Part shown: piece after piece, positions 3,440 through 60,022 of the stretch | How positions within the stretch are numbered: the first letter of the stretch is position 1 | How the letters are laid out: every line of letters begins with the position of its first letter | Assembly (NCBI RefSeq): GCF_035084215.1 | Contig: NC_090355.1 | Location: forward strand, 34,472,001 to 34,536,000 | DNA from: Heptranchias perlo | Taxonomy: Eukaryota | Direction of reading: 5' to 3' | Length of the DNA: 64,000 nucleotides | The notes under the pieces: model-generated | The model's input: the letters and a program-made list of their open reading frames with translations, nothing else | Told to the model about the DNA's origin: nothing | The model's database searches: none | Program-made: the position numbers and the translations under genes

Positions 3440-4917
3440 ATACTGCCAGATCCTCCCTGGCAACAGGTGTGATGCCAGAGGATTGGAGGACTGCTAACGT
3501 TGTACCATTGTTTAAAAAAGGGAGAAAGAGTTGGACCGAGTATTTATAGGCCAGTCTGTCTAACCTCGGTGGTGGGCAAATTATTGGAATCAATTCTGAG
3601 GGACAGCATAAATTGAGATTTAGAAAGGCACGGGTTAATCAAGGACAGTCAACATGGATTAGTTAAGGGAAGGTCGTGTCTGACTAACTTGATTGAATTT
3701 TTTGAGGAGGTAACAAGGAGGGTCAATGAGGGTAACGCGACTGATGTAGCGTACATGGATTTTAGCAAGGATCTTGACAAGGTCCCATGTGGAAGACTGG
3801 TCAGAAAAGTAAAAGCCCATGGGATCCAAGGGTAAGTGGCTAGTTGGATCCAAAATTGGCTCAGTGGCAGGAAGCAAAGGGTAATGGTTGACGGGTGTTT
3901 TTGCAACTGGAAGGCTGTTTCCAGTGGGGTTCCGCAAGACTCAGTACTAGGTCCCTTGCTTTTTGTGATATATATTAATGATTTGGATTTGAATGGGGGA
4001 CTCAAGAAGTTTGCAGATGATACAAAAATTGGCCGTGTGGTTGATAGTGAGGAGGAAAGCTGTAGACTGCAGGAAGCTATCAATGGACTGGTCAGGTGGG
4101 CAGGAAAGTGGCAAATGGAATTCAATCCAGAGAAGTGTGAGGTATTGCATTTGGGGAGGGCAAACAAGGCAAGGGAGTACACAATAAATAGGAGGGTACT
4201 GAGAGATATGGAGGATCAAAGGGACCTTGGAGTGCATGTCCATAGATCCCTGAAGGTAGCAGGACAGGTAGATAAGGTGGTTAAAAAGGCATACGGGATA
4301 CTTTCCTTTATTAGCCAAGGCATAGAGTAGAAGAGCAGGGAGATTATGTTAGAACTGTATAAAACATTGGTTAGGCCAGAGCTTGAGTACTGCGTACAGT
4401 TCTGGTCACATTACAGGAAAGATGTGATTGCACTAGAGAGGTTACAGAGGAGATTTACGAGGATGTTGCCAGGGCTGGAGAATTTTAGCTATGGGAAAAG
4501 ATTGGATAGACTGGGGTTGTTTTCTTTGGAACAAAGGAGGCTGAGGGGAGATTTAATTGTGGTATATAAAATTATAATAGGACTAGATAGATTGGATAGG
4601 GAGGACCTATTCCCCTTAGCAGAGGGGTCAGTGACCAAGGGCATAGATTTAAAGTAATTGGTAGAAGGATTTGAGGGGAGCTGAGGAGAATTTTTTTTCA
4701 CCCAGAGGGTGGTGGAACTCACTGCCTGAAAGGGTGGTAGAGGCAGAAACCCTCAACTCATTTAAAAAGTACTTGGATGTGCACTTGAAGTGCTGTAACC
4801 TACAGGGCTACGGACCATGTGCTGAAAAGTGGGATTAAGCTGGATAGCTCTTTTTCGGCTGGCACAGACATGATGGGCTGAATGGCCTCCTTCTGTGCCG
4901 TAACTTTCTATGATTCT
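3440..4917 (+). mobile_element. CR1-clade LINE, 5'-truncated ORF2 (RT) + 3' tail
   Basis: WIQNWLSGRKQRV, SGVPQDSVLGPLLF, KFADDTK, LYKTLVRPELEYCVQFW; ends ...ttctatgattcta. Confidence 0.95.
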
Positions 4918-4919
4918 AA

Positions 4920-5335
4920 AGGCTGGGCTTGATCTCCTTAGAGCAGAGAAGATTAAGGGGAGATTTAATTGAGGTGTTCAAAATTATGAGGGGTATTGAT
5001 AGTGTAAATAAGGAGAAACTGTTTCCACTGGCAGAACGTCGGTAACCAGAGGACACAGATTTAAGATAATTGGCAAAAGAACCAGAGGGGGGAGATAGGA
5101 GAATTTTTTTTTTTACACACAGCGAGTTGTTATGATCTGGAATGCACTGCCTGAAATGGTGGTAGAAGCAGATTCAATAGTGATTTTCAAAAAGAAACTG
5201 GATAAATAGTGGAAGGGAAAAAATTTGCAGGACTATGGGGAAAGAACAGGGGAGTGGGACTAATTGGATAGCTCTTTCAAAGAGCCGGGACAGGCACAAT
5301 GGGCCGAACGGCCTCCTGTGCTGTATGATTCTGTG
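4920..5335 (+). mobile_element. CR1 LINE 3' fragment
   Basis: LEQRRLRGDLIEVFKIM-type end and tail ggccgaacggcctcctgtgctgtatgattct. Confidence 0.85.
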
Positions 5336-6421
5336 TTAAATCGAGCATTAAGGCCAGTCTCGTTTTCTTTCTGTTTAAATGCTGCAGCCAGGCTCGGAAC
5401 CACGAGCTACTCCGGGTGGAGAAAGAGATGCAGTACTGAGAGAGACACAGAGCTATGGAACCTTTCACCTTCCTCAGTCTTCTCCTTCTCCCACAATCTT
5501 CAACAATTCTACAAATCAAGTTTGATATCACCTACCCACGATCCCTGATTTACTTCATCCTGTCTCCTACTCTATTCATCTACATCATGTCCTGCACTGT
5601 GCACCTTGCCTGTCACCAAGGTTTCGTAAGTCACTGTTGTAATGTGGGAAACACGGCAGACGATTTGCGCACAGCAAGGTCCCACAAACAGCGATTCAAT
5701 AAATGACCAGATCATCTGTTTTTTAGGTGTTGGTCGAGGGACAAATATCATCCAGGACACCCCTGCTTTTCTTCGAATAGTGGCCGTGGGATCTTTTACG
5801 TTGACCTGTGAGGGCAGACGGGACCTCGGCTTCACATCTCATCCGAAAGACGGCACCTCTGACAGTGCAGCACTGCCTCGGTACTGGCACGGGGAATGTC
5901 AGCCTGGATTATGTGATCAAATCTCCGCAGTGAGGCTTGGAACTCACGACCTCCAGAGAGCTGCCACTGAGCCAAGACGGACACCGGATCTCTGTCTGGG
6001 GATCTACGCCCGACCAATCGTTCTCCAGGATCCTGTGCCCGAGGCCAGGCTTTTGCACCCAACCAATTACCAGCCAGGATCCATGGGTTTATCACATTAC
6101 AGTGATCACTACTGGAGGGAGGGGGGGGGGGGGGCTGGGGTCAGAGGTCAGATCAGGTGATGGCTCCACAGTTGAATGGCCCATTGACACTCACTGTTTT
6201 CCCCCGCCCCACAAGTCCTGGCCTTCAGGCCACCCCCCTCCTCTCTCTCTCTCTCTCCCTCCCACTCCCACTCCCCACCCCTCAGGCCCCGCTCTCTTCC
6301 CCCCCCAATCTCCCAAGGCCCTTGTCCTTCTCCCCGGCCTCTTCGATCTCGGTTGCCGGGGCCGCCTGTGTCCCAGGTCGCCACCCCCCGCCCCCCGGGC
6401 CGGGTCATGGCGGCTGCCCAC

Positions 6422-6580
6422 CTGCTCCTCCTGCCGCTCCCGCCGCCGCTCCGATTCTTCAAAGAAAAATGTTCCCCTTTTTTTTTCAAATCGAACTCCG
6501 TCCGCGGCTGTCAACAAACTCCAGCTCCACTTCCGGGTCACCGGACCCCCCCGGCCTGTCAATCATTAACTACTTCCGGT
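6422..6580 (-). other. ZER1: Probable non-coding exon 1 of ZER1 (5' boundary approximate)
   Basis: CpG/GC-rich segment with minus-strand donor gagcag|GTGGGC at 6421-6416, upstream of the ZER1 coding exon and divergent from TBC1D13. Confidence 0.55.
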
Positions 6581-6991
6581 GTGAAACCGGTCCGCCCCAC
6601 GGGAAAAAATCCGTTAGAAACAAATACATGATGGAAAATAAAATTAATGCCCACCACGTCCTTTTAAAGATTTATAACTGTAACTATTTAACATTTATGA
6701 TTTACTCATCTATTTATTATGACTTTTGTGATTGCTATTTCTAACGGAGATCAAGATTTATAATTTACAAAAATTATTTGAATCTAACTAGCTCTAAAGT
6801 AAAAGTATTTAAATCTTAAAATACTAATATAAGTACCGGGATATTTTTTAATCAAAATTTCCAGCGTGAATCCCATAGTGGGCGGATAATTATTTGATCC
6901 TGAGGTAATATGTCCATGTTTCTGGTCGGACCCATTGCTCCTAACATCGGTTTCCGGTAGCGCACTGCCTGCCGGGAAATAGGAAGTCAAC

Positions 6992-7014
6992 ATGTCGACT
7001 CTGTACAAGAACAG
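6992..7014 (+). CDS. TBC1D13: TBC1 domain family member 13 (Rab GAP), exon 1
   Basis: caacATG; MSTLYKNR; donor AG|GTGAGG; phase joins exon 2. Confidence 0.9.
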
Positions 7015-7248
7015 GTGAGGAGGGAAAATGGAGGCGGGACTGTGGTCGGCGGCCGGGCTTCCCCGCTAATGACAGGCATTGTGCAAGCAGGAGCCGGCCT
7101 ACAGGGTTCCTCCCTCTTAATGGCAGGGTAAAGTCTGAATGCACATCGAGGGCAGGGACGCTGGGCCCGGGGGGGGGGAACCAAGAGCCCATTTAAACAG
7201 GTGTGTTCTCCATCACCTGAGTGAGGGGCTGCGGAGTTGGTCTTTTTA

Positions 7249-7550
7249 CCCCCCTCCCTCTCTCTCCTCTCCTCTCCCCTCTCCCTTCCCCCTCCTTTCC
7301 CTTCCCTCCCCTCCCCCTCCTTCCCTCTTCCTCCTTCCCTCCCCTCTCTCTCCCCCTCCTTCCCTCCCCTCTCTCTCCCCCTCCTTCCCTCCCCTCTCTC
7401 TCCCCCTCCTTCCCTCCCCTCTCTCTCCCCCTCCTTCCCTCCCCTCTCTCTCCCCCTCCTTCCCTCCCCTCTCTCTCCCCCTCCTTCCCTCCCCTCTCTC
7501 TCCCCCTCCTTCCCTCCCCTCTCTCTCCCCCTCCTTCCCTCTCCCTCCTT
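7249..7550 (+). repeat. Pure polypyrimidine tract with 25-bp minisatellite (ctccttccctcccctctctctcccc) x~8
   Basis: About 300 bp of only C/T; perfect units from ~7331 to ~7540. Confidence 0.95.
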
Positions 7551-8269
7551 GGCTGACAGTGCCAGAGACCAATAGGACCAACCTGCACCCCCCCATCCCC
7601 CAGGCTGTGGGGCTTTTTTCTTTTTGGCATAATCTTAACCACAAGTGCCAGAAATTGATGAAAAGTGTCTGAAATCGCACTCTTCTGTGTTGTGGGACTT
7701 TAAACGTCGACTGTCTGCTCCTCAAAGGGTTTGACCCAAAATTGACTGTCTTTCCTCTCCTCGTGCTGACTGGCCTGCTTGTGTATCTCAACAGCAGCTT
7801 ACATTTATACGGTGCCTTTAATGTGGTAACATGTCCTGAGGCGCTTCACAGGAGTGTAATCAAACAAACATTAACACTGAGCCACATAAGGAGCTATTAG
7901 GGCAGGTTACCAAAAGCTTGGTCAAAGAGGTAGGTTTTAATGAGCATCTTAAAGGAGTAAAGAGAGGCGGAGAGGTTTAGGGAGGGAATTCCAGAGCTTG
8001 GTGACGAGGCAGCTGAAGGCACAGCTGCTGGTGGTGGAGTGATTAAAATTGGGGCTGCGCAAGAGGCCAGACTAGGAGGAGTGCAGAGATCTCCAACTTG
8101 TTTTTGTTTCAGATTTTCAGCATCTGCAGTGTTTTGCTTTTTACTTGTGTCATTTAGTGTTGTATTTGGGTTGCAGCTGATCTGGGCTGCTTGAATGTTT
8201 TGAAAATATGAGCCAGGGCACTCAAAAGGCTGTGATTCAATATAGGAGCCCATTTTTACATTGAACTAC

Positions 8270-9060
8270 ATACAATGTACAACACAGAAACAGGCCATTC
8301 GGCCCAACTGGTCTATGCCGGTGCTTATGCTCCACACGAGCCTCCTAACACCCTACTTCATCTCACCCTACCTGCATTACCTTCTATTTCTTTCTCCTTC
8401 ATGTGTTTATCCAGCTTCCCCTTAAATGCTGTATGCTATTCGCCTCAACTAATCCTTGTGGTAGCGAGTTCCATATTCTCACCACTCTGGATAAAGAAAT
8501 TTCTCCTGAATTCCCTATTGCATTTATTAGTGACTCTCTTATATTTATGGCCTTAGTTTTGGTCTCTCCCACAAGTGGAAACAACTTCTCTCTGTCTACC
8601 CTATCAAACCCTTTATACTCTCAAGGACCTCTATCAGGTCACCCCTTCAGCCCTCTCTTTTCTAGAGAAAAGAGCCCCAGCAATCTTTCCTGATGGTGGT
8701 GGAGTGATTAAAATTGGATATAACCTCTCAGTTCTGGTATCATCCTTGTAAATCTTTTTTGCTCCTTCTCCAGTGCCTCTATCTCCTTTTTATAATATGG
8801 AGACCAGAACTGTGCACAGTATTCAGTATGGTCTAACCAAAGTTCTATACAAGTTTGACATAACTTCTCTGCTTTTCAATTCTGTGCCTCTAGAAATGAA
8901 CCCAAATGCTTTGTTTGCTTTTTTCATGGCCTAATTAACCTGTGCGCTACTTTTAGTGATTTGTGTATCTGTACCTCCAGATCCCTTTGCTCCTCTATCC
9001 TATTTAGACTCTTATTTTCTAAGGAGTACGTGGCTTCCTTATTCTTCCTACCAAAATGCA
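8270..9060 (-). mobile_element. CR1 LINE 3' fragment
   Basis: VVRIWNSLPQGLVEANS; same tail as 45-422. Confidence 0.85.
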
Positions 9061-27455: not shown

Positions 27456-29081
27456 GTGAGGCAATTTCATCCTATTAAAGATATAATCACATTATAAAAT
27501 TACATTTGAGATTCTCTAGGTTTTCAATGACGCAACAAAATAGGTTTGATGCCAGAATGTATCCTGCTTCTTTAGATGGTGTCGTATCTGCAAGTTCCTC
27601 CCTAGGAGAACAGTGGAAGGACTCGCAGGCTGATTAACAGTCTGACAGGCCGTGACGTGAACGCTGCTTCCATGGCCATAACCATCTTTATACCGGCCGA
27701 TAGTGGGGGGGTTAGTGCTATACGGTGGGAGGGCCTTATGGGCTCCCACAACCTATACAATGGGGGGGGGGGGGGAGCCACCCACACCCACCAGTCATGA
27801 GTATCCAGCTGGACATCATTCCAGAGCCGGGGCTCTTGCCTTCACTCGCCGGAGCTGTCTGGAGTGGGTTTGACCTTTTGACTCGGCCAAAGGCGCTCTC
27901 TGTTACCTTACTGAGGAGGTATGAGCTGCACCCAGCACAAACACTTGCCTCTTTTTGTAGCGCTCAATGCGCTGCTGCAGCTGGCAGTCCTGACCTTGGT
28001 GGCACAATAAAGTAACTGCTGCCTCCAAACGCCCTGAGATCCACCTGCAGAGGCGGTTTCTACAAGCACCCCTGGAGGTAGTGCTGTCTCCATCGCTGGA
28101 AGTGCAGGGAGCCATGGTTTCTGTCCACTGGTGGCTGAAGAACTTTAGCCTGCCAGTACAGGCTAGAGCATCATGAATGTTGTGCTCGCTTCCCTTTTAT
28201 TGTGATCTCCCCCAGACACTGGGAACGTCTCCGCCCCTGCCTCAGCTCATCTGTGCCTTTGTTACCTTCAGACTCGACTATTCTAATGCTCTCAAGCTGG
28301 CCTCCCATCTCCCACCCTCCGTAAACTTGAGCTCATCCAAAACTTGCGTCCTAACTCACACCAAGTCCTGTTCACCCATCACCACTGTGCTCACTGACCG
28401 ACATTGGCTCCTGGTCTGGGAATGCCTCGATTTTAAAATTCTCATCCTTGTGTTCAAATCCCTCTTGGTGCATCCCTGATTTCCTTCATTCCACCATTGG
28501 CGGCCGTGCCTTCAGCCGTCTAGGCCCTAAGCCCGGAATTTCCTCCCTAAACCTCTCCACCTCTCTCTCCTCCTTTAAGACCCTCTTTAAAACCTCCCTC
28601 TTTGACCAAGCTTTTGGTCATCTGTCCTAATATCTCCTTACGTGGCTTGGTGTCAAATTTTTGTCTGCGAACGCGCCTGTGAAGCGCCTTGAGATGTTTT
28701 ACTATGTTACAAGTGTCTGTTTGGCTCAGCTGGTGGCACTGTCACTTTTGAATCAGAAACCTCACTCCAGGAGTTGAACACAGGCTGACATTTCAGTGCA
28801 GTACTGAGGGAATGCTGCACTGCCAAGGCCGCTTTCAGATGAGACATTGAATAAAGCCATGGGATCGTTTACATCCACCCGAAGAAGAGCAGGGCAGTTC
28901 TCCCAGCATCTTGGCCAATAATCAACCAGCAACCAACATCTCATTCGTCTTGTCCTGTTTGTGGGATTTTGCGTGCAAATTGGCTGCCGCGTTTACCTAC
29001 ATAACGACAGTGACAACACTTCAAAAAGTAATTGGCTGTAAACTGAGGATGTGAAAGGCAATATATAAATGCAAGTCTTTC

Positions 29082-47100: not shown

Positions 47101-48823
47101 TGACCTCTGAGAACCCAACTCTCAGTTGGATTACAGCTGATGCATTCACCCGCCATCATTGTAATAACCAAAAAATGTAGACATGAGCATCTGTGGGTGA
47201 ACCCGGGAGGGAGCAGAGAGAGGTGGAGTTTAGCAATCACTATAACCAGAGCTAATCCCTTTGAAACATGAATGACCAAAGCTAGTGACTCCCCACTCAC
47301 GAGTACTGAGGTGTCACTATGACTGCTGTAGGATACTACATACAATAAAGCTATTGATATGTTTGTGACTGTTACTCTATGTAAACTGTACCAAACCGTG
47401 TGCCATCAATGTCAGCAGGACTGGGGGGGATAGATAGCCTATTACTGTCCTGTACACCTGATTATGTGTCTTCATTAAATTATTTGAGAAGGGCCAGTAA
47501 GGCAGCAATGAAACAGACCTCGACACTAAATTACAGAGCAGATGCTGGCGGGAATGAATGCCAATTGCTAATGCATGATGTATAGAAACTAGAATATATT
47601 GCACTGTAGGAGCCAGTAACTTATTTTTGCATCACTTATAATGTAGGCTCTTATTTCGTGCCTGAGGCTGGCCATTCAGTGAGTGGCAGGTTTTTAATTT
47701 GTTGCATGTCACACAGGTCAAAAAATCCAACTAAATTAACTCGATGTATCAGAAATGCAACAAAACAAGGAAAGAAATCATTTATCTTCTACACGCTAAC
47801 TTTGTTTTTACTGGACTACGAGTAAATTATTTAAAGGGATCACATTCTTTTTTTCTGTTATTTTTGGATTAGTAGCTTCCCACCTCCCCCCAGTGTCGTC
47901 ATCTGTCCGATGGCACTTGGTTACAGTAAACATAAGTGTGGTGCATTATCCAAACTCTGCCAAACTTTAACAGAAACCCCTGCATCTTCTACAAATCGTA
48001 AGTCTCGAGCTCCTTTATGGAGGTTTTTTTTTGGGGCCAATTCATTTGGATTTCTTCCGTGTAAGCTCCTGATTGTGTATCTGTTTTAATGAAGGTTTAT
48101 TTACTGTGTGATATTTCCCCTGAAAAATGTGCACTTGTATTTAAAAAAGAAATTTACAAATTCTGCTCAATGTCTTTACCTGAATTTTAGAATTGAAAAA
48201 ATTTGGTAGTGTATTCTGTTCAACGCACTCAGCGTTTAATTGTTATGTTTCGGAAAAAAATGAATTAAAAAAAAAACTATCGAACATTATCATGTTGGTT
48301 GCTGTTTGCGTAGGGCTAAAATTTAACCAAAAATTGAGGAACACCGTGAATATTACGTGATTGGTTTGCGGGGAATACAACCCAAGTTGGGGGAGGAGAG
48401 AAGACTGCAAGATGAGCATCATCCAATTATCGCCATCCTGCCCACACTCTTCCTCCTCATAACATCCTCACTGTGTGGAAACCATCACACCATAGAATCA
48501 TACAGCACAGAAGGAGACCTTTCAGCCCATCGTGCCTGTGACGGTTCTTTGAAAGAGCTATCCAATTGGTCCCACTCCCCTGCTCTTTCTCTTTTCCCCC
48601 CCCCCCCCATAGCCTTGCAAATTTCTCCTATTCAAGTATGTATTTAATTCACTTTTAAAAGTCCATCTCCTACTCCAATTCATTCTTTTCCAGGACTTCA
48701 CATACTTGTGGAACTCCACCTCTTTCACTCTTCCCTTCCTTCAGGTACCAAAAAAAATGATCAAAAAGGCTAATGAAATGTTGGCCTTTATTTCAAGGGG
48801 GTTGGAATGCTTCAGCTGTAAAG

Positions 48824-51612
48824 CCATCTCGTACACCAACTTTACAGCAGACGCCGCAACCTCGAAACTAAGATAGAGCCCATACTCTCAACCTGTACTC
48901 CGGACACAGCAGACCAGCTGCGAGACACCGCCAAACAGACGAGGCAATGGAACTACGCTGCCTACATGAAAACCAAGAGCAGGAAGCTTGAGAAACTCGG
49001 CATCACCACCAGCATCGATCAAGCTTCCCCTGGTACCATGGTTGCAACCACAGGGAAGTCTATCGTCAATTTGTCCGACCACACCCTTCAACCAGACGAA
49101 ATCGAAGTTCTCAGCTGAGGGTTCAATTTCTGCCCCACTACCAAAATGGACCCCATTAGTCTCGCGGCGGACACAGAGGAATTCATCAGGAGAATGAGGC
49201 TCCGGGAATTTTTCCACAAACCCCAAGATTTCAGCAGCGAACCCAATGAGACAATCAACGATCCGGAACAGCAGACAGAGGGATCCGCGGTACAGCAACC
49301 GAAGAGGAAAGAGTCAAACTGGACTCCTCCGGAGGGTCGCTGCCCTCAGCTGGACATGTATGCTCAAGCTGTCAGGAAATGCGTCAATGCCAGATTCATC
49401 AGGCGCACTCAGAAGACAGTCCAGAATGTCACCCGAGCACAACGCAACGCTCTCAAGACCAACCGCAACATCGTCATCAAACCAGCGGACAAGGAGGAGC
49501 CATCGTCATGCAGAACAGAACGGACTATTGCAAAGAAGCATACCGACAACTGGACAACCAGGAACACTACAGACGGTTACCCGCAGATGCGACCAAAGAA
49601 CACACCCACCAGCTCAACAAACTGATCGAGACCTTCGATCCAGACCTTCAAAGCATCCTACGTGCTCTCATCCCACGTACTCCCCGCGTGGGAGACTTCT
49701 ACTGCCTCCCAAAGATACACAAAGCCAACACACCCGGACGTCCTATCGTATCAGGCAACGGAACCCTGTGTGAGAACCTCTCTGGATACATCGAGGGCAT
49801 CCTGAAACCCATCGTACAGGGAACCCCCAGCTTCTGTTGCGACACTACAGACTTCCTACAAAAACTCAGTACCCACGGACCAGTTGAACCAGGAACACTT
49901 CTCACCACGATGGACGTCTCGGCACTCTACACCAGTATCCCCCACGATGACTGCATCGCTGCGACAGCATCAATACTCAACACCAACAACAGCCAATCTC
50001 CAGACGCCATCCGACAACTCATCCGCTTCATCCTGGATCACAATATCTTCACCTTCGATAACCAGTTCTTTACCCAAACACACGGAACAGCCATGGGGAC
50101 CAAATTCGCACCCCAACACACCAACATTTTCATGCACAAGTTCGAGCAGGGCTTCTTCACTGCACAGGACCTCCAACCAACGCTATACACCAGATACATC
50201 GACGACATTTTCTGTCTATGGACCCACGGTGAAGAATCACTAAAGAGACTACACGATAACATCAACAAGTTCCATCCGACCATCAAGCTCACCATGGATT
50301 ACTCCTCAGAATCAGTTTCTTTCTTGGACACACGAATCTCCATCAAAGACGGGCACCTCAGCACCTCACTCTACCGCAAGCCCACTGACAACCTCACGAT
50401 GCTCCACTTTTCCAGCTTCCACCCTAACCACGTCAAAGAGGCCATCCCCTATGGACAGGCCCTGCGAATACACAGGGTCTGCTCAGACGAGGAGGAACAC
50501 GATGGACACCTACAGACGCTGAAAGACGCCCTAGTAAGAACAGGATATGACGCTCGACTCATCGATCGACAGTTCCGACGGGCCACAGCGAAGAATCGCA
50601 TAGACCTCCTCAGAAGACGAACACGGGACACAACCAACAGAGTACCCTTCGTCGTCCAGTACTTCCCCGGAGCGGAGAAACTACACCATGTTCTCCGCAG
50701 CCTTCAACATGTCATCAATGACAACGAACACCTCGCTATGGCCATCCCCACATCTCCACTACTCTCCTTTAAACAGCCACCCAACCTCAAACAGACCATC
50801 ATTCGCAGCAAATTACCCAGCTTTCAGGAGAACAGCATCCACGACACCACACAACCCTGCCACGGTAACCTCAGCAAGACATGCCAGATCATCGACACAG
50901 ATACCACCATCACACGAGAGGACACCACCCACCAGGTGCATGGTTCATACTCCTGTGACTCGGCCAACGTTGTCTACCTCATACGTTGCAGGAAAGGATG
51001 CCCCAGAGCATGGTACATTGGCGAGACCATGCAGACGCTGCGACAACGGATGAACGGACACCGCGCAACAATCGCCAGACAGGAGGGTTCCCTTCCAGTC
51101 GGGGAACACTTCAGCAGTCAAGGACATTCAGCCACCGACCTTCGGGTAAGCATACTCCAAGGCGGCCTTCGATCTACATGACAACGCAAAATCGTCGAGC
51201 AGAAATTGATAGCCAAGTTCCGCACCCATGAGGACGGCATCAACCGGGATCTTGGGTTCATGTCACGCTACACGTAACCCCACCAGCGAACAAAAGTTAT
51301 CTGTTTATAATATAACGGGTCATTTGCTGTCTTTCTCTTCCTTCCGGATGTTTCTGCCTCTTTTTTTTGGTGGTTTGTATATTCGGTGGCCCTGTAGGTA
51401 ACACCTCTCTGTCTGAACACTTTGATTGCCTTGGCAACGGGCAGTTGGAAAGACTATCTGTAATCACCAGGTATTGTTCTGTGATTTATAAATGCGAAAG
51501 GTTCGAGAATTTCTTGACATTCACCTGAGGAAGGAGGAAGCCTCCGCAAGCTTGTGATTTTCAAATAAAATTGTTGGACTATAACTTGGTGTTGTAAAAT
51601 TGTTTACAATTG
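48824..51612 (+). mobile_element. Penelope-like retroelement (RT + GIY-YIG endonuclease), 5'-truncated, slightly disabled, with 3' pseudo-LTR
   Basis: IVNLS...GFNFCPT, KPADK/GG (frameshift), FYCLPKIHK...PGRPIVSG, GTAMGT, YTRYIDDIF, LYRKPT, VVYLIRC...WYIGET. Flanked by direct repeat TCAGCTGTAAAG (48812-48823, 51613-51624) inside a CR1 fragment. Confidence 0.95.
51519..51559 (+). ncRNA. Minimal type I hammerhead ribozyme motif of the Penelope pseudo-LTR, core mutated (GCAA for GAAA)
   Basis: attcac-CTGAGGA-a-ggagg aag cctcc-GCAA-gctt-gtgatt. Confidence 0.75.
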
Positions 51613-52059
51613 TCAGCTGTAAAGTGCCTTGGTCAGATCCCATCTGGAGTACTACATCCCTCACCGATCCCTTCGAGCAATCGAAACCAGTCCAGGAGAT
51701 TACGTGGATCAAGTGTTATCTATAAAGTTACTTACCTTCTATATGATGCAATCTCTGTCCCAGTCAAGAACCAGTCCAGCTTCCTCTTGAAGGCAAACAG
51801 AGAGTCAGCACCCATCCCACCAGCCAGCAACATATTCCAGAGGCTCACTACTCTCTGGGAAAGAAGAACTGCTTTTCAATTAATTTTATTTTTTTTAATT
51901 CATTCTTGGGATGTGGGGGTCACTGGCAAGGCCAGCATTTATTGCCCATCCCTAGTTGCCTTTGAGGAGGTGCAGTCTGTGGGGTGAAGGTACTCCTACA
52001 GTGATGTCAGGTAGGGAGTTCATTCATTGTCGCTGGTCCAAGTCGGGACAACAGCAGTG

Positions 52060-52580: not shown

Positions 52581-53120
52581 ATGCGGCGCGTTCTCCGCTC
52601 GCGGTGGCTGCTGGCGGGAGTTTCCTTGGCCGCGGGAGCCGGGCTAGGGGCCGGATTCAGGACCCACCGGGACGGCGAGGCTTCCGACTCTCTCGTCCGC
52701 TTCCCGGTGATCCCGATCCCGGCTGTAGCCGCGGATGCCATCGGCGGCGGCGGGACGCTGGTGCCCTCCGGCCCGGCTCCGCTGTCCCCTAGCCGGACCG
52801 CCGAGATCATGAAGTTCGGCTTCCCGGCTCTGTCCCACATCAAGTCCCGCGAGTCCTACGTGCTGGCCTACGACCCCCGCACCAGGAACGCCCAGTGGGT
52901 GCTGGAGCAGCTGGACGAGGTCAGGCTGGGCCAGGCCTGCTCCGACCGCGGTCGGTGCGAGTTCAGGGAGGATGAGTCGGTGCACGAGTACCACCGAGCC
53001 CGGAACGGCGACTTCAAAGGCAGCGGCTTCGACCGGGGCCACCTGGCGGCGGCCGCCAACCACAGGCACAGCCAGAAATGCATGGACGACACCTTCTACC
53101 TCAGCAACGTGGTGCCGCAG
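52581..53120 (+). CDS. ENDOG: Endonuclease G, mitochondrial, exon 1
   Basis: Arg-rich presequence MRRVLRSRWLLAG...; IMKFGFP, RESYVLAYDPRTRNAQWVLEQL, FDRGHLAAAANH (catalytic DRGH), DDTFYLSNVVPQ; donor CAG|GTAAAC. Confidence 0.95.
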
Positions 53121-53725
53121 GTAAACAGGGGAGGGGTGTGGGTGCCAGTAGTAGATTTGTTAAACCCACTCTTTGTACCAGTATCTAGCACACTTGATAT
53201 GATCCCATTCCGCTCTTTGCTTTGGTCAGTCCCACGCAGGAGCTGGCCAGCCTTCATAGAACCTGACAGCACAGAAGGAGGCCATTCGGCCCATCGTGTC
53301 TGTGCCAGCTCTTTGATAGAACTATCCAATTAGACCCACCCTGCTCATTCCCCCCAGCCCTGCAAATTTTTCCTCCCTCTCCGTTGACGGATCTGTGCAC
53401 TTCCTGTTTTTTTAATGACGGTCTGGAGTGCGTTACAAGGGAGCCATAGGTTGGGATTGAGATTATATAAATTGTGCATGTGGGTTGTACCATTCAACAA
53501 GATCATCAATACCCTGAGCTGTGCTGCACCCTTGAAACACGTCGTCCTGTGTTCATCTCTACTTTGGCAAGGTTTTCTATTTAATTATCTTCAAACATCA
53601 TGGAGGACAGCATCATGGACAATGGTGACCCTTCACAAGTGAATCAAATGGCTTGAGGTGAAGTACTCTTGTTACTTTTACACTGAAACATAGGAATTGC
53701 CGGACGAAAGACGACCAAGGTTCAT

Positions 53726-53824
53726 TTTCACATCGTTCACCTGACGAAGGAGGAAGCCTCCGAAAGCTTGTGAATTTAAAATAAAATTGCTGGACTATAA
53801 CTTGGTGTTGTAAAATTGTTTACA
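53726..53824 (+). mobile_element. Solo Penelope pseudo-LTR insertion (~100 bp) in ENDOG intron 1
   Basis: Near-identical to 51519-51609; flanked by 9-bp direct repeat AAGGTTCAT (53717-53725, 53825-53833). Confidence 0.9.
53735..53775 (+). ncRNA. Intact minimal type I hammerhead ribozyme
   Basis: Stem I gttcac/gtgaat; core CTGACGA; stem II ggagg/cctcc; GAAA; palindromic stem III AGCT; cleavage triplet CUU (after 53769). Confidence 0.8.
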
Positions 53825-54368
53825 AAGGTTCATCTAGTTCGCCTTCTACCATCCTAGTGGTCACCTGCTACAACGATAATGGAGTTGTTGACTAATCGTA
53901 GCAATCAATTAGTCTCCAACAGACCCAGACATGAGGCGACGAAAACCCCCAGTGGTGGAAAGATTTGGGAATCATAGGTCCAAAGTCACCTGTTCCTCTC
54001 GAGCATTGCTACACTTACCACATCGAATTCATTGGCCTCACGTCAGAATGCTCTGAGTCAGAAGGTTGTGGATTCAAGTCCCCCTCCAGAGTCTTGATCA
54101 CATAATCTAGGCTGACCCTCCAGTACAGTACCGAAGGAGTGCTGCACTGTCGGAGGTGCCGTCTTTCAAATGAGACTTTAAACCGAGGCCCTGTCTGCCC
54201 TCTCGGATGGACATAAAAGATCCCTTGGCACTATTTCGAATAAGAGCAGGGGAGTTCTCCCCGGTGTCCTGGGGCCAATATTTATCCCTCAACCAACATC
54301 ACTAAAACAGATTATCTGTACGAGGGTTAGTTTGTATTTGCTCTGTTTCTCTTCATTTCCTCCTTTAG

Positions 54369-54478
54369 AATCCTAATTTAAATCAAAATGCCTGGAACAA
54401 CCTTGAGAAGTACTGCCGGAGCCTGACCAAATACAACAAGAACGTGTACGTCTGCACTGGACCCCTCTACCTGCCGAG
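54369..54478 (+). CDS. ENDOG: ENDOG exon 2
   Basis: NPNLNQNAWNNLEKYCRSLTKYNKNVYVCTGPLYLPR; tAG / GTATGC. Not in the ORF track. Confidence 0.96.
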
Positions 54479-58447: not shown

Positions 58448-60022
58448 TACATAGGAACAGGAGTAGGCCATTCAGCCCCTCGTGCCTGCTCCGCCATTTG
58501 ATAAGATCATGGCTGATCTGTGATCTAACTCCATATACCTGCCTTTGGCCCATATCCCTTAATACCTTTGGTTGCCAAAAAGCTATCTATCTCACATTTA
58601 AATTTAGCAATTGAGCTAGTATCAATTGCCGTTTGCGGAAGAGAGTTCCAAACTTCTACCACCCTTTGTGTGTAGAAATGTTTTCTAATCTCGCTCCTGA
58701 AAGGTCTGGCTCTAATTTTTAGACTGTGCCCCCGACTCCTAGAATCCCCAACCAGCGGAAATAGTTTTTCTCTCTACCCACTCTATCCGTTCCCCTTAAT
58801 ATCTTATAAACTTCGATCAGATCACCCCTTAACCTTCCAAACTCTAGAGAATACAACCCCAATTTGTGTAATCTCTCCTCGTAACTTAACCCTTGAAGTC
58901 CGGGTATCATTCTAGTAAACCTACGCTGCACTCCCTCCAAGGCCAATATGTCCTTCCGAAGGTGCGGTGCCCAGAACTGCTCACAGTACTCCAGGTGCGG
59001 TCTAACCAGGGTTTTGTATAGCTGCAGCATAACTTCTGCCCCCTTGTACTCCAGTCCTCTAGATATAAAGGCCAGCATTCCATTAGCCTTATTGATTATT
59101 TTCTGCACCTGTTCATGACACTTCAATGATCTACGTACCTGAACCCCTAAGTCCCTTTGGACATCCACTGTTTTTAACTTTTTACCATTTAGAAAGTACC
59201 CTGTTCTATCCTTTTTTGATCCAAAGTGGATGACCTCACATTTGTCTACATTGAATTCCATTTGCCACAGTTTTGCCCATTCACCTAATCTATCAATATC
59301 GCTTTGTAATTTTATGTTTTCATCTACACTACTTACAATGTCACCAATCTTTGTGTCATCGGCAAACTTAGATATGAGACTTTCTATGCCTTCATCTAAG
59401 TCGATAATAAATATTGTGAATAATTGAGGCCCCAAGACAGATCCCTGCGGGACTCCACTAGTCACATCCTGCCAATGTGAGTACCTACCCATTATCCCTA
59501 CTCTCTGTCGCCTTTCGCTCAGCCAACTTCCTAACCAAGTCCGTACTTTTCCCTCAATTCCATGGGCTTCTATCTTAGCTAACAGTCTCTTATGTGGGAC
59601 TTTATCAAATGCCTTCTGGAAGTCCATATAAATAACATCCATTGACATTCCCCTGACCACTACTTTAGTCACCTCTTCAAAAAATTCAATCAGGTTTGTC
59701 AGACATGACCTACCTTTCACAAATCCATGCTGGCTCTCTCTGATTAACTGAAAATTCTCAAGGTGTTCAGTCACCCTAGCCTTAATTATAGACTCCAGCA
59801 TTTTCCCCACAACAGATGTTAGGCTAACTGGTCTATAATTCCTTGGTTTCCCTCTCTCTCCTTTCTTGAAAAGCGGAGTGATGTGCAATTTTCCAATCTA
59901 GAGGGACAGTTCCTGAATCTAGAGAACTTTGAAAGATTATAGTTAGGGCATCTGCAATGTGCTCACCTACTTCCTTTAAAACCCTGGGATGGAAACCATC
60001 TGGTCCTGGGGATTTGTCACTA
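58448..60022 (-). mobile_element. CR1 LINE, 5'-truncated, long RT frame (58719-59888)
   Basis: PLFKKG..NYRPVSLTSVVGK, QHGFVKGRSCLTNL, DFQKAFDKVPH, GVPQGSVLGP, KFADDTK. Confidence 0.96.

Follow-up and report, generated by a model that had tools for sequence, protein, structure and literature searches.

A short hammerhead-bearing insert in a shark intron: a candidate run-off copy of a Penelope-like element leader

Introduction

The first intron of an EndoG-type nuclease gene of the shark Heptranchias perlo carries a short insert that contains the parts of a hammerhead ribozyme and has a target-site duplication of its own. A first-pass annotation of the window, by which we mean the whole 64,000-nt stretch of DNA analysed here, left two origins for this insert, an extremely 5′-truncated Penelope copy or a non-autonomous retrozyme-like family, and proposed that its ribozyme could cut the host pre-mRNA. 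The locus raises the question of how so short a copy came to be inserted with its ribozyme intact, and of whether that ribozyme acts on host RNA. As a single intronic ribozyme it is of little weight, being one among more than 21,000 intact cores in the genome; the population pattern bears on the mechanism of Penelope-like transposition, for which in vitro work on a single element has demonstrated internal priming.

Results

The insert and its surroundings

The features on which the argument draws are as follows; all lie on the forward strand of the window.

48824..51612, +: Penelope-like copy distinct from the insert, 5′-truncated and of a different subfamily, with a broken ORF, upstream of host exon 1
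53121..54368, +: first intron of the host gene, which encodes an EndoG-type nuclease (Pfam Endonuclease_NS)
53717..53725, +: left target-site duplication, AAGGTTCAT; the element shares its final 5 nt (5′-junction microhomology)
53724, +: site equal to the predicted element transcription start, the A of TCATTT and the commonest 5′ end in the subfamily
53726..53824, +: 99-bp insert, a Penelope-like leader (5′ UTR, also 3′ terminal repeat) without the 37-nt tail
53735..53775, +: minimal type I hammerhead, predicted from sequence
53816..53824, +: 3′ end of the insert, the first of two terminal sites and putative reverse-transcription start 1
53825..53833, +: right target-site duplication

With exon 1 ending at 53120 and exon 2 starting near 54369, the insert falls in intron 1 in the sense orientation, as the first-pass annotation had it; the gene name ENDOG is that annotation's own, the Pfam match supporting Endonuclease_NS only. 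Contigs presumed to derive from RNA join exon 1 to exon 2 across the insert, both in an insert-bearing sample and in a related organism; such contigs show splicing and cannot give amounts or RNA ends. DNA contigs from the same sample that span the junction between unique flank and insert show no differences, and the empty-site joint was not found in one sample's DNA contigs (two runs in full, and otherwise among the joints listed); contigs of relatives left the unique flank uncovered. Contigs of another organism closely cover both exons and none of them matches the repeat family (53742-53817) at 85%; the family may be lineage-specific, and a gap in contigs proves nothing.

The 9-bp duplication flanks the insert on both sides and cannot be extended, a match expected by chance with a probability of ~5e-4 over 100 offset pairs, which bears out the earlier description of a 99-bp insert with its own duplication. 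As the last five letters of the left copy (TTCAT) match the element too, element sequence may start as early as 53721. The insert had been described as the repeat of the Penelope element 2 kb upstream. Its Penelope origin stands, but that neighbour belongs to a different subfamily: the insert matches the neighbour's 3′ end (51520-51608) at 84 of 89 nt, about 94%, whereas among the 202 copies sampled elsewhere at least 10 agree with it at 98 of 98 nt, including some that continue past the TATA box. This identity to distant copies shows the insert to be young and rules out derivation from the neighbour. It is a genuine but unremarkable stub, and the element it comes from is of a known kind. The neighbour has a 12-bp duplication of its own (TCAGCTGTAAAG, 48812-23 and 51613-24), and its hammerhead core is broken, with GCAA in place of GAAA. 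Over 48790-51650 this 2.8-kb element is nested in another repeat, the halves of which flank the 12-bp duplication.

Hammerhead anatomy and predicted fold

The insert has the anatomy of a minimal Penelope-type hammerhead, as first described. A 6-bp stem I (53735-40 with 53770-75, the outer pair G-U) encloses the core CUGACGA (53741-47) and GAAA (53762-65), agreeing with the CUGANGA/GAAA consensus; an unpaired A at 53748 provides the extra base before a 5-bp stem II (53749-53 with 53757-61, AAG loop); and the palindrome AGCU (53765-68) occupies positions 15.2-16.2, followed by a UH site at which cleavage is predicted after U53769. This is the sole such core among nine loose CUGANGA..GAAA matches in the window. 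The earlier statement that the insert folds as a hammerhead is nevertheless too strong: its minimum-energy fold is a different structure, with a stability that does not exceed that of shuffled sequences (z -0.21), and while stem II is computed to be stable, stem I has a probability of 0.22-0.38, the hammerhead being one of several competing folds. The check with hammerhead covariance models, which had been suggested for the insert, gave no hammerhead match there in an Rfam search.

The parent element and its copies

Genome-wide counts were made as exact sequence patterns over the 3.25-Gb genome, with reversed controls giving 0; they returned 21,358 hammerhead cores and 62,115 copies of the 3′ motif. 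A sample of 202 copies was drawn from the places listed, which covered the starts of contigs 1 and 2, and 177 of these had an exact anchor. One locus (L062:2161-4866, + strand) holds a full element in which an uninterrupted 902-codon ORF lies between two terminal repeats; it also has an inverted partner upstream. The 902-aa product matches RVT_1 (Pfam, 2.5e-10), with YIDD at 532, and carries a C-terminal GIY-YIG-type motif (VVYLI..YIG at 790); Pfam returned no endonuclease match in this ORF, and the endonuclease domain rests on the motif. A single ORF with reverse transcriptase and C-terminal GIY-YIG endonuclease is the layout of endonuclease-bearing (EN+) Penelope-like elements, and the parent element likewise has their partial-tandem terminal repeats, inverted 5′ partners and optional 30-40-nt tail. 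Before the endonuclease stands the linker CHGNLCKTC (at 753; C-x4-C-x2-C), of the CX2-5CxxC form that defines the Neptune and Nematis clades (PMC2377424, PMC3846280, PMC8557442 and PMC6765202, as a set), and which points to a parent of Neptune/Nematis type. The ATG directly follows the 37-nt tail, so that the hammerhead region serves as 5′ UTR as well as 3′ terminal repeat.

Head-to-head partners accompany 103 of the 202 sampled copies, while a same-strand neighbour within 300 bp was found for 8, all of them in pairs, with no longer arrays at the sampled loci. Among non-inverted short loci, 12 of 33 have duplications of their own (three duplicated rows dropped and three spurious matches discounted), and the 5′ ends of duplication-flanked solos range from 7 to 30 nt from the core. 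Cores were intact in 167 of 180 sampled copies, a sample partly chosen by the intact core. On contig 1 there are many perfect pairs of stubs that meet head to head in a palindromic AATT, precisely at the predicted +1 A (e.g., L198/L199, L205-L208 and L210/L211), and positions 4,435,512-4,467,160 of that contig hold full-length units head to tail at ~3.08 kb spacing, tandem masters of the subfamily with 40-nt spacing.

Two fixed 3′ ends, and 5′ ends that follow the TATA box

Copy ends were placed by gapped mapping to multiple references. The 3′ ends are bimodal: among 204 copies (the 202 sampled and two in the window), 99 end at site 1, no more than 9 nt from the anchor, and 101 where the tail ends, which leaves 4 in between; the insert itself ends at site 1. 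The 5′ ends in a 3′-anchored sample of 90 (100 loci minus 10 local duplicates) fall 3′ of the core C in 14 cases, within the ~22 nt above it in 37, in the next 21 nt in 8 and beyond TATA in 31.

Long copies have TATAAA 38-47 nt above the core, the distance varying by subfamily, and one group has TTCAAA instead. In the insert's subfamily the TATA box lies 46 nt above the core, and the 30th base counted from its first T is the A of TCATTT, which we take to be the transcription start from its likeness to an initiator and its spacing from TATA. Copies of this subfamily that reach 12 nt 5′ of the core C number 12,376, falling to 6,459 at 17 nt (the A), 5,039 at 18 nt and 3,848 at 25 nt; in 1,420 (725 + 695) of those reaching 17 nt the A is preceded by a base foreign to the element. 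Of 89 listed copies that reach 25 nt, 81 extend to the TATA box as well. Losses per base amount to 12%, then 22% at the A, 3.8%, and 0.5% further upstream, although the count patterns differ in the bases they specify and T-run variants inflate some of these losses. A second subfamily, whose TATA box lies 6 nt closer (40-nt spacing), gives 9,785, 7,428 and 6,219 copies at 10, 13 and 22 nt, a loss of 8.8% and then 2.0% per base, with the steep part over by 13 nt.

Measured from the core, the modal 5′ ends of the second and the insert's subfamily lie at 10 and 17 nt, respectively (medians 13 and 18, p = 0.009); measured from TATA, they lie at +31 and +30/31 (p = 0.34), in a comparison of 13 of 17 and of 26 copies in which one row is probably misassigned. 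The peak thus shifts relative to the hammerhead and stays at TATA+30/31, which argues that the boundary follows the promoter motif and not the ribozyme. The first-pass annotation was right to single out the 5′ boundary as informative, in that copy ends peak at one position; its genome-wide check, which opposed a shared boundary to random ones, came out between the two, the ends being peaked but spread, with duplications on some solos. From the +1 A to site 1 the distance is 101 nt, corresponding here to 53724-53824, of which the first two bases are common with the left duplication.

Discussion

A run-off origin for the stub

We consider it probable that the insert is a run-off cDNA of the element's 101-nt leader, primed at the leader's own internal start site, and not a member of a retrozyme family. 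Under this proposal, element RNA would start at TATA+30 in the 5′ repeat and carry the priming sites twice. The endonuclease would nick the intron and cDNA would be primed at site 1 in the 5′ copy of the terminal repeat; reverse transcription would then pass through the uncut hammerhead to +1 and run off the front end of the RNA, and the AT that the cDNA shares with the target (up to TTCAT) would mediate its joining. Long, variably truncated copies would result when priming takes place in the 3′ repeat, whereas cDNA primed in the 5′ repeat would run off after 101 or 138 nt and give the stubs. The hammerhead would be present in the stub only because it lies between transcription start and priming site. 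Lacking TATA box, tail and ORF, the stub is presumably unable to copy itself; it is probably dead and probably does not cut.

The observations behind this proposal are the identity to the leader, two fixed 3′ ends, 5′ ends ~30 nt below TATA in two subfamilies, and the combination of a duplication with microhomology; TATA+30 as the element's transcription start is our reading of these positions. The head-to-head pairing of about half the sampled copies also fits the model. A further signal is a G before the +1 A in 725 of the 1,420 junctions, against a background of 29%. A copied cap would give such an excess, but the signal is no more than suggestive: 58 of the first 70 such cases are head-to-head pairs, and the signal is confounded because the partner arm of a pair can supply the G. 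Among duplication-flanked solos, untemplated letters occur in 5 of 8 cases with G and in 3 of 15 with A or T (p = 0.07), the A/T set comprising the first 30 listed and 20 picked by skipping palindromic pairs. None of 30 junctions inspected proved to be a 5-nt deletion variant, and that origin for the G is rejected.

Several observations sit less well with a run-off. The ends spread over ~10 nt, and at 12-17 nt from the core, a stretch downstream of +1, about half of the insert's subfamily drops out; the 8 of 90 ends that fall between TATA and the peak zone, and the several long copies with TTCAAA in place of TATAAA, also count against it. The promoter of the D. virilis Penelope is described as internal and TATA-less (PMC2377424, PMC3846280, PMC8557442 and PMC6765202, as a set), although a TATA box plus initiator has been proposed for a rotifer element (PMC3846280). 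The in vitro support comes from an anole element of the Poseidon clade, whereas the insert's parent is of Neptune/Nematis type. We found no run-off account in print, the search including the shark literature, with subscription papers outside its scope.

Should the stubs be run-off products, they would imply 5′-repeat priming in vivo and would allow an RNA start to be mapped from DNA alone; the hammerhead would have been uncut in the template, and solo minimal hammerheads would become numerous without selection on the ribozyme.

Other origins for the stub

Because the ends pile up at TATA+30, plain random 5′ truncation, one of the two origins originally offered for the insert, does not fit. One may instead postulate ordinary truncation with a local hotspot, in which cDNA primed in the 3′ repeat stalls or is released past the hammerhead, or in which the endonuclease or microhomology leads to trimming or joining at ATTT-like words. 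Most Penelope-like copies are indeed 5′-truncated, as reported among others in bioRxiv 10.64898/2026.07.22.740005, the anole endonuclease favours ATT (PMC11167929), many ends in our data begin with ATTT or TTT, and microhomology is found in 12 of the 15 A/T-preceded solos with a duplication. We nonetheless regard this account as doubtful: between subfamilies the peak moves 7 nt relative to the hammerhead and stays constant relative to TATA, and far fewer ends fall in the AT-rich stretch 3′ of the hammerhead (0.3% per base) and at a second TTTCATTT at TATA+15 (0.5-1.1% per base).

The other origin, a self-propagating non-autonomous family of SINE-like or retrozyme-like kind, would rely on stub transcripts, made from an internal promoter or in circular form, which the enzyme of the element copies again. 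Very high copy number, recurrent boundaries and the duplications found at 12 of 33 short loci would suit such a family, as would the internal promoter of the D. virilis Penelope and the derivation of vertebrate retrozymes from Penelope terminal repeats (bioRxiv 10.64898/2026.07.22.740005). Retrozymes, however, have at least two consecutive tandem hammerhead units; the insert here is solo, and the sampled copies show only the few same-strand pairs, against head-to-head partners in about half. An independent SINE-like family would have one shared 5′ boundary and form a separate lineage, whereas the 5′ ends are spread, those of the duplication-flanked solos included, and the stub is identical over its 98 compared nucleotides to copies that run past TATA. 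RNA downstream of the priming site was moreover needed in vitro for the anole element (PMC11167929), a region that the stub does not have. On these grounds we find a retrozyme-like or SINE-like family decidedly unlikely.

Cleavage of the host RNA

The proposal that the stub is a working intronic ribozyme, cutting the host pre-mRNA after 53769 by way of a trans dimer or an element protein, can point to an intact core and palindrome on the sense strand, to a predicted joint fold of two copies that is more stable than their separate folds (-33.5 against -25.6 kcal/mol) but differs from the exact dimer structure, and to protein-assisted cutting known for the anole element (PMC11167929). Its premise that minimal hammerheads cleave efficiently as dimers finds no support in the papers cited here: metazoan minimal hammerheads showed no activity as monomers and low activity as dimers or trimers (Cervera and de la Peña, PMC4209133), the low dimer activity being repeated in a review (within the set PMC2377424, PMC3846280, PMC8557442 and PMC6765202); 1 of 9 Xenopus dimers cut (bioRxiv 10.64898/2026.07.22.740005); and the anole hammerhead cut only with added protein, and RNA-seq gave no ends at its cut site (PMC11167929). 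Such weak or absent activity argues against a working ribozyme here, as does the low probability of stem I. The window holds no intact partner core, the neighbour's being broken and upstream of exon 1, and the intact core of the stub would reflect its youth, most sampled cores being intact in a sample partly chosen for that property. Spliced contigs that skip the intron in an insert-bearing sample leave the claim of host pre-mRNA cleavage unsupported. Lünse et al. are said to have reported on dimer cleavage, and rates may exceed those given above. Host RNA cutting by the stub is unlikely, and we hold an active, pre-mRNA-cutting ribozyme at this site to be highly improbable.

A more far-reaching scenario would be that routine integration of run-off leaders seeds thousands of shark introns with intact hammerheads, silent until element RNA or protein is present and then cutting host pre-mRNAs, that of the present gene among them, in trans. 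It would link transposon activity to host gene knock-down if true; we give it very little credence.

Relation to known systems

The hammerheads described here resemble the Penelope minimal hammerheads of Cervera and de la Peña 2014 (PMC4209133) in their type I core, unpaired base before stem II and palindromic vestigial stem III, and also in their distribution, mostly as dispersed singles of truncated copies or opposite-strand pairs, with thousands per genome. That study gives ~4,000-9,000 motifs in coelacanth and Xenopus, in contrast to the 21,358 exact cores counted here, and in its accessible portions the 5′ boundaries of single copies are not analysed, unlike in the present work.

An experimental parallel to the proposed priming is PAc, which belongs to the Poseidon clade and comes from Anolis (Frangieh et al. 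2024, PMC11167929). It likewise has an optional tail delimited by two internal priming sites, a hammerhead just upstream and the uncut RNA as template. In vitro, 5′-shortened PAc templates gave shorter products and both target strands were cut and extended; the tail signature is tied there to two internal reverse-transcription starts. It differs in that the ORF starts inside the hammerhead, whereas in the shark element it starts after the tail and has the C-x4-C-x2-C linker of Neptune/Nematis, and run-off stubs bounded by the transcription start are not described in the available text of that paper.

Animal non-LTR retrozymes (Li et al. 2026, bioRxiv 10.64898/2026.07.22.740005) are similarly small and non-coding, with a type I hammerhead and kinship to Penelope terminal repeats, and monomers occur among them; they are defined by tandem hammerhead units, however, whereas the copies here are solo or in head-to-head pairs. 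The solo and inverted Penelope repeats of Adineta (PMC3846280) share with the present copies inverted 5′ partners, an optional ~31-bp tail, 8-10-bp duplications, microhomology junctions and a putative TATA box plus initiator. Adineta solos were ascribed to recombination or deletion (PMC3846280), whereas those described here have duplications of their own and start near the predicted +1.

The proposed leader run-off is also similar in its working to a better-known product, from which it would differ in its primer and in the fate of the cDNA. In retroviruses, minus-strand strong-stop DNA arises when priming near the 5′ end of the RNA yields a short cDNA that ends at +1. Here a nick in the genomic DNA would instead provide the primer, and the short cDNA would become integrated; the stub is not a member of that system.

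Other features of the window

A second ribozyme-like feature lies on the reverse strand at 27615-27689, where Rfam reports a CPEB3 (HDV-like) ribozyme match of 47.7 bits (cut-off 35, E 9.2e-10); neither the rest of the window nor the retrieved loci contain another copy. A reverse transcriptase-like ORF of another element lies at 58719-59897, also on the reverse strand.
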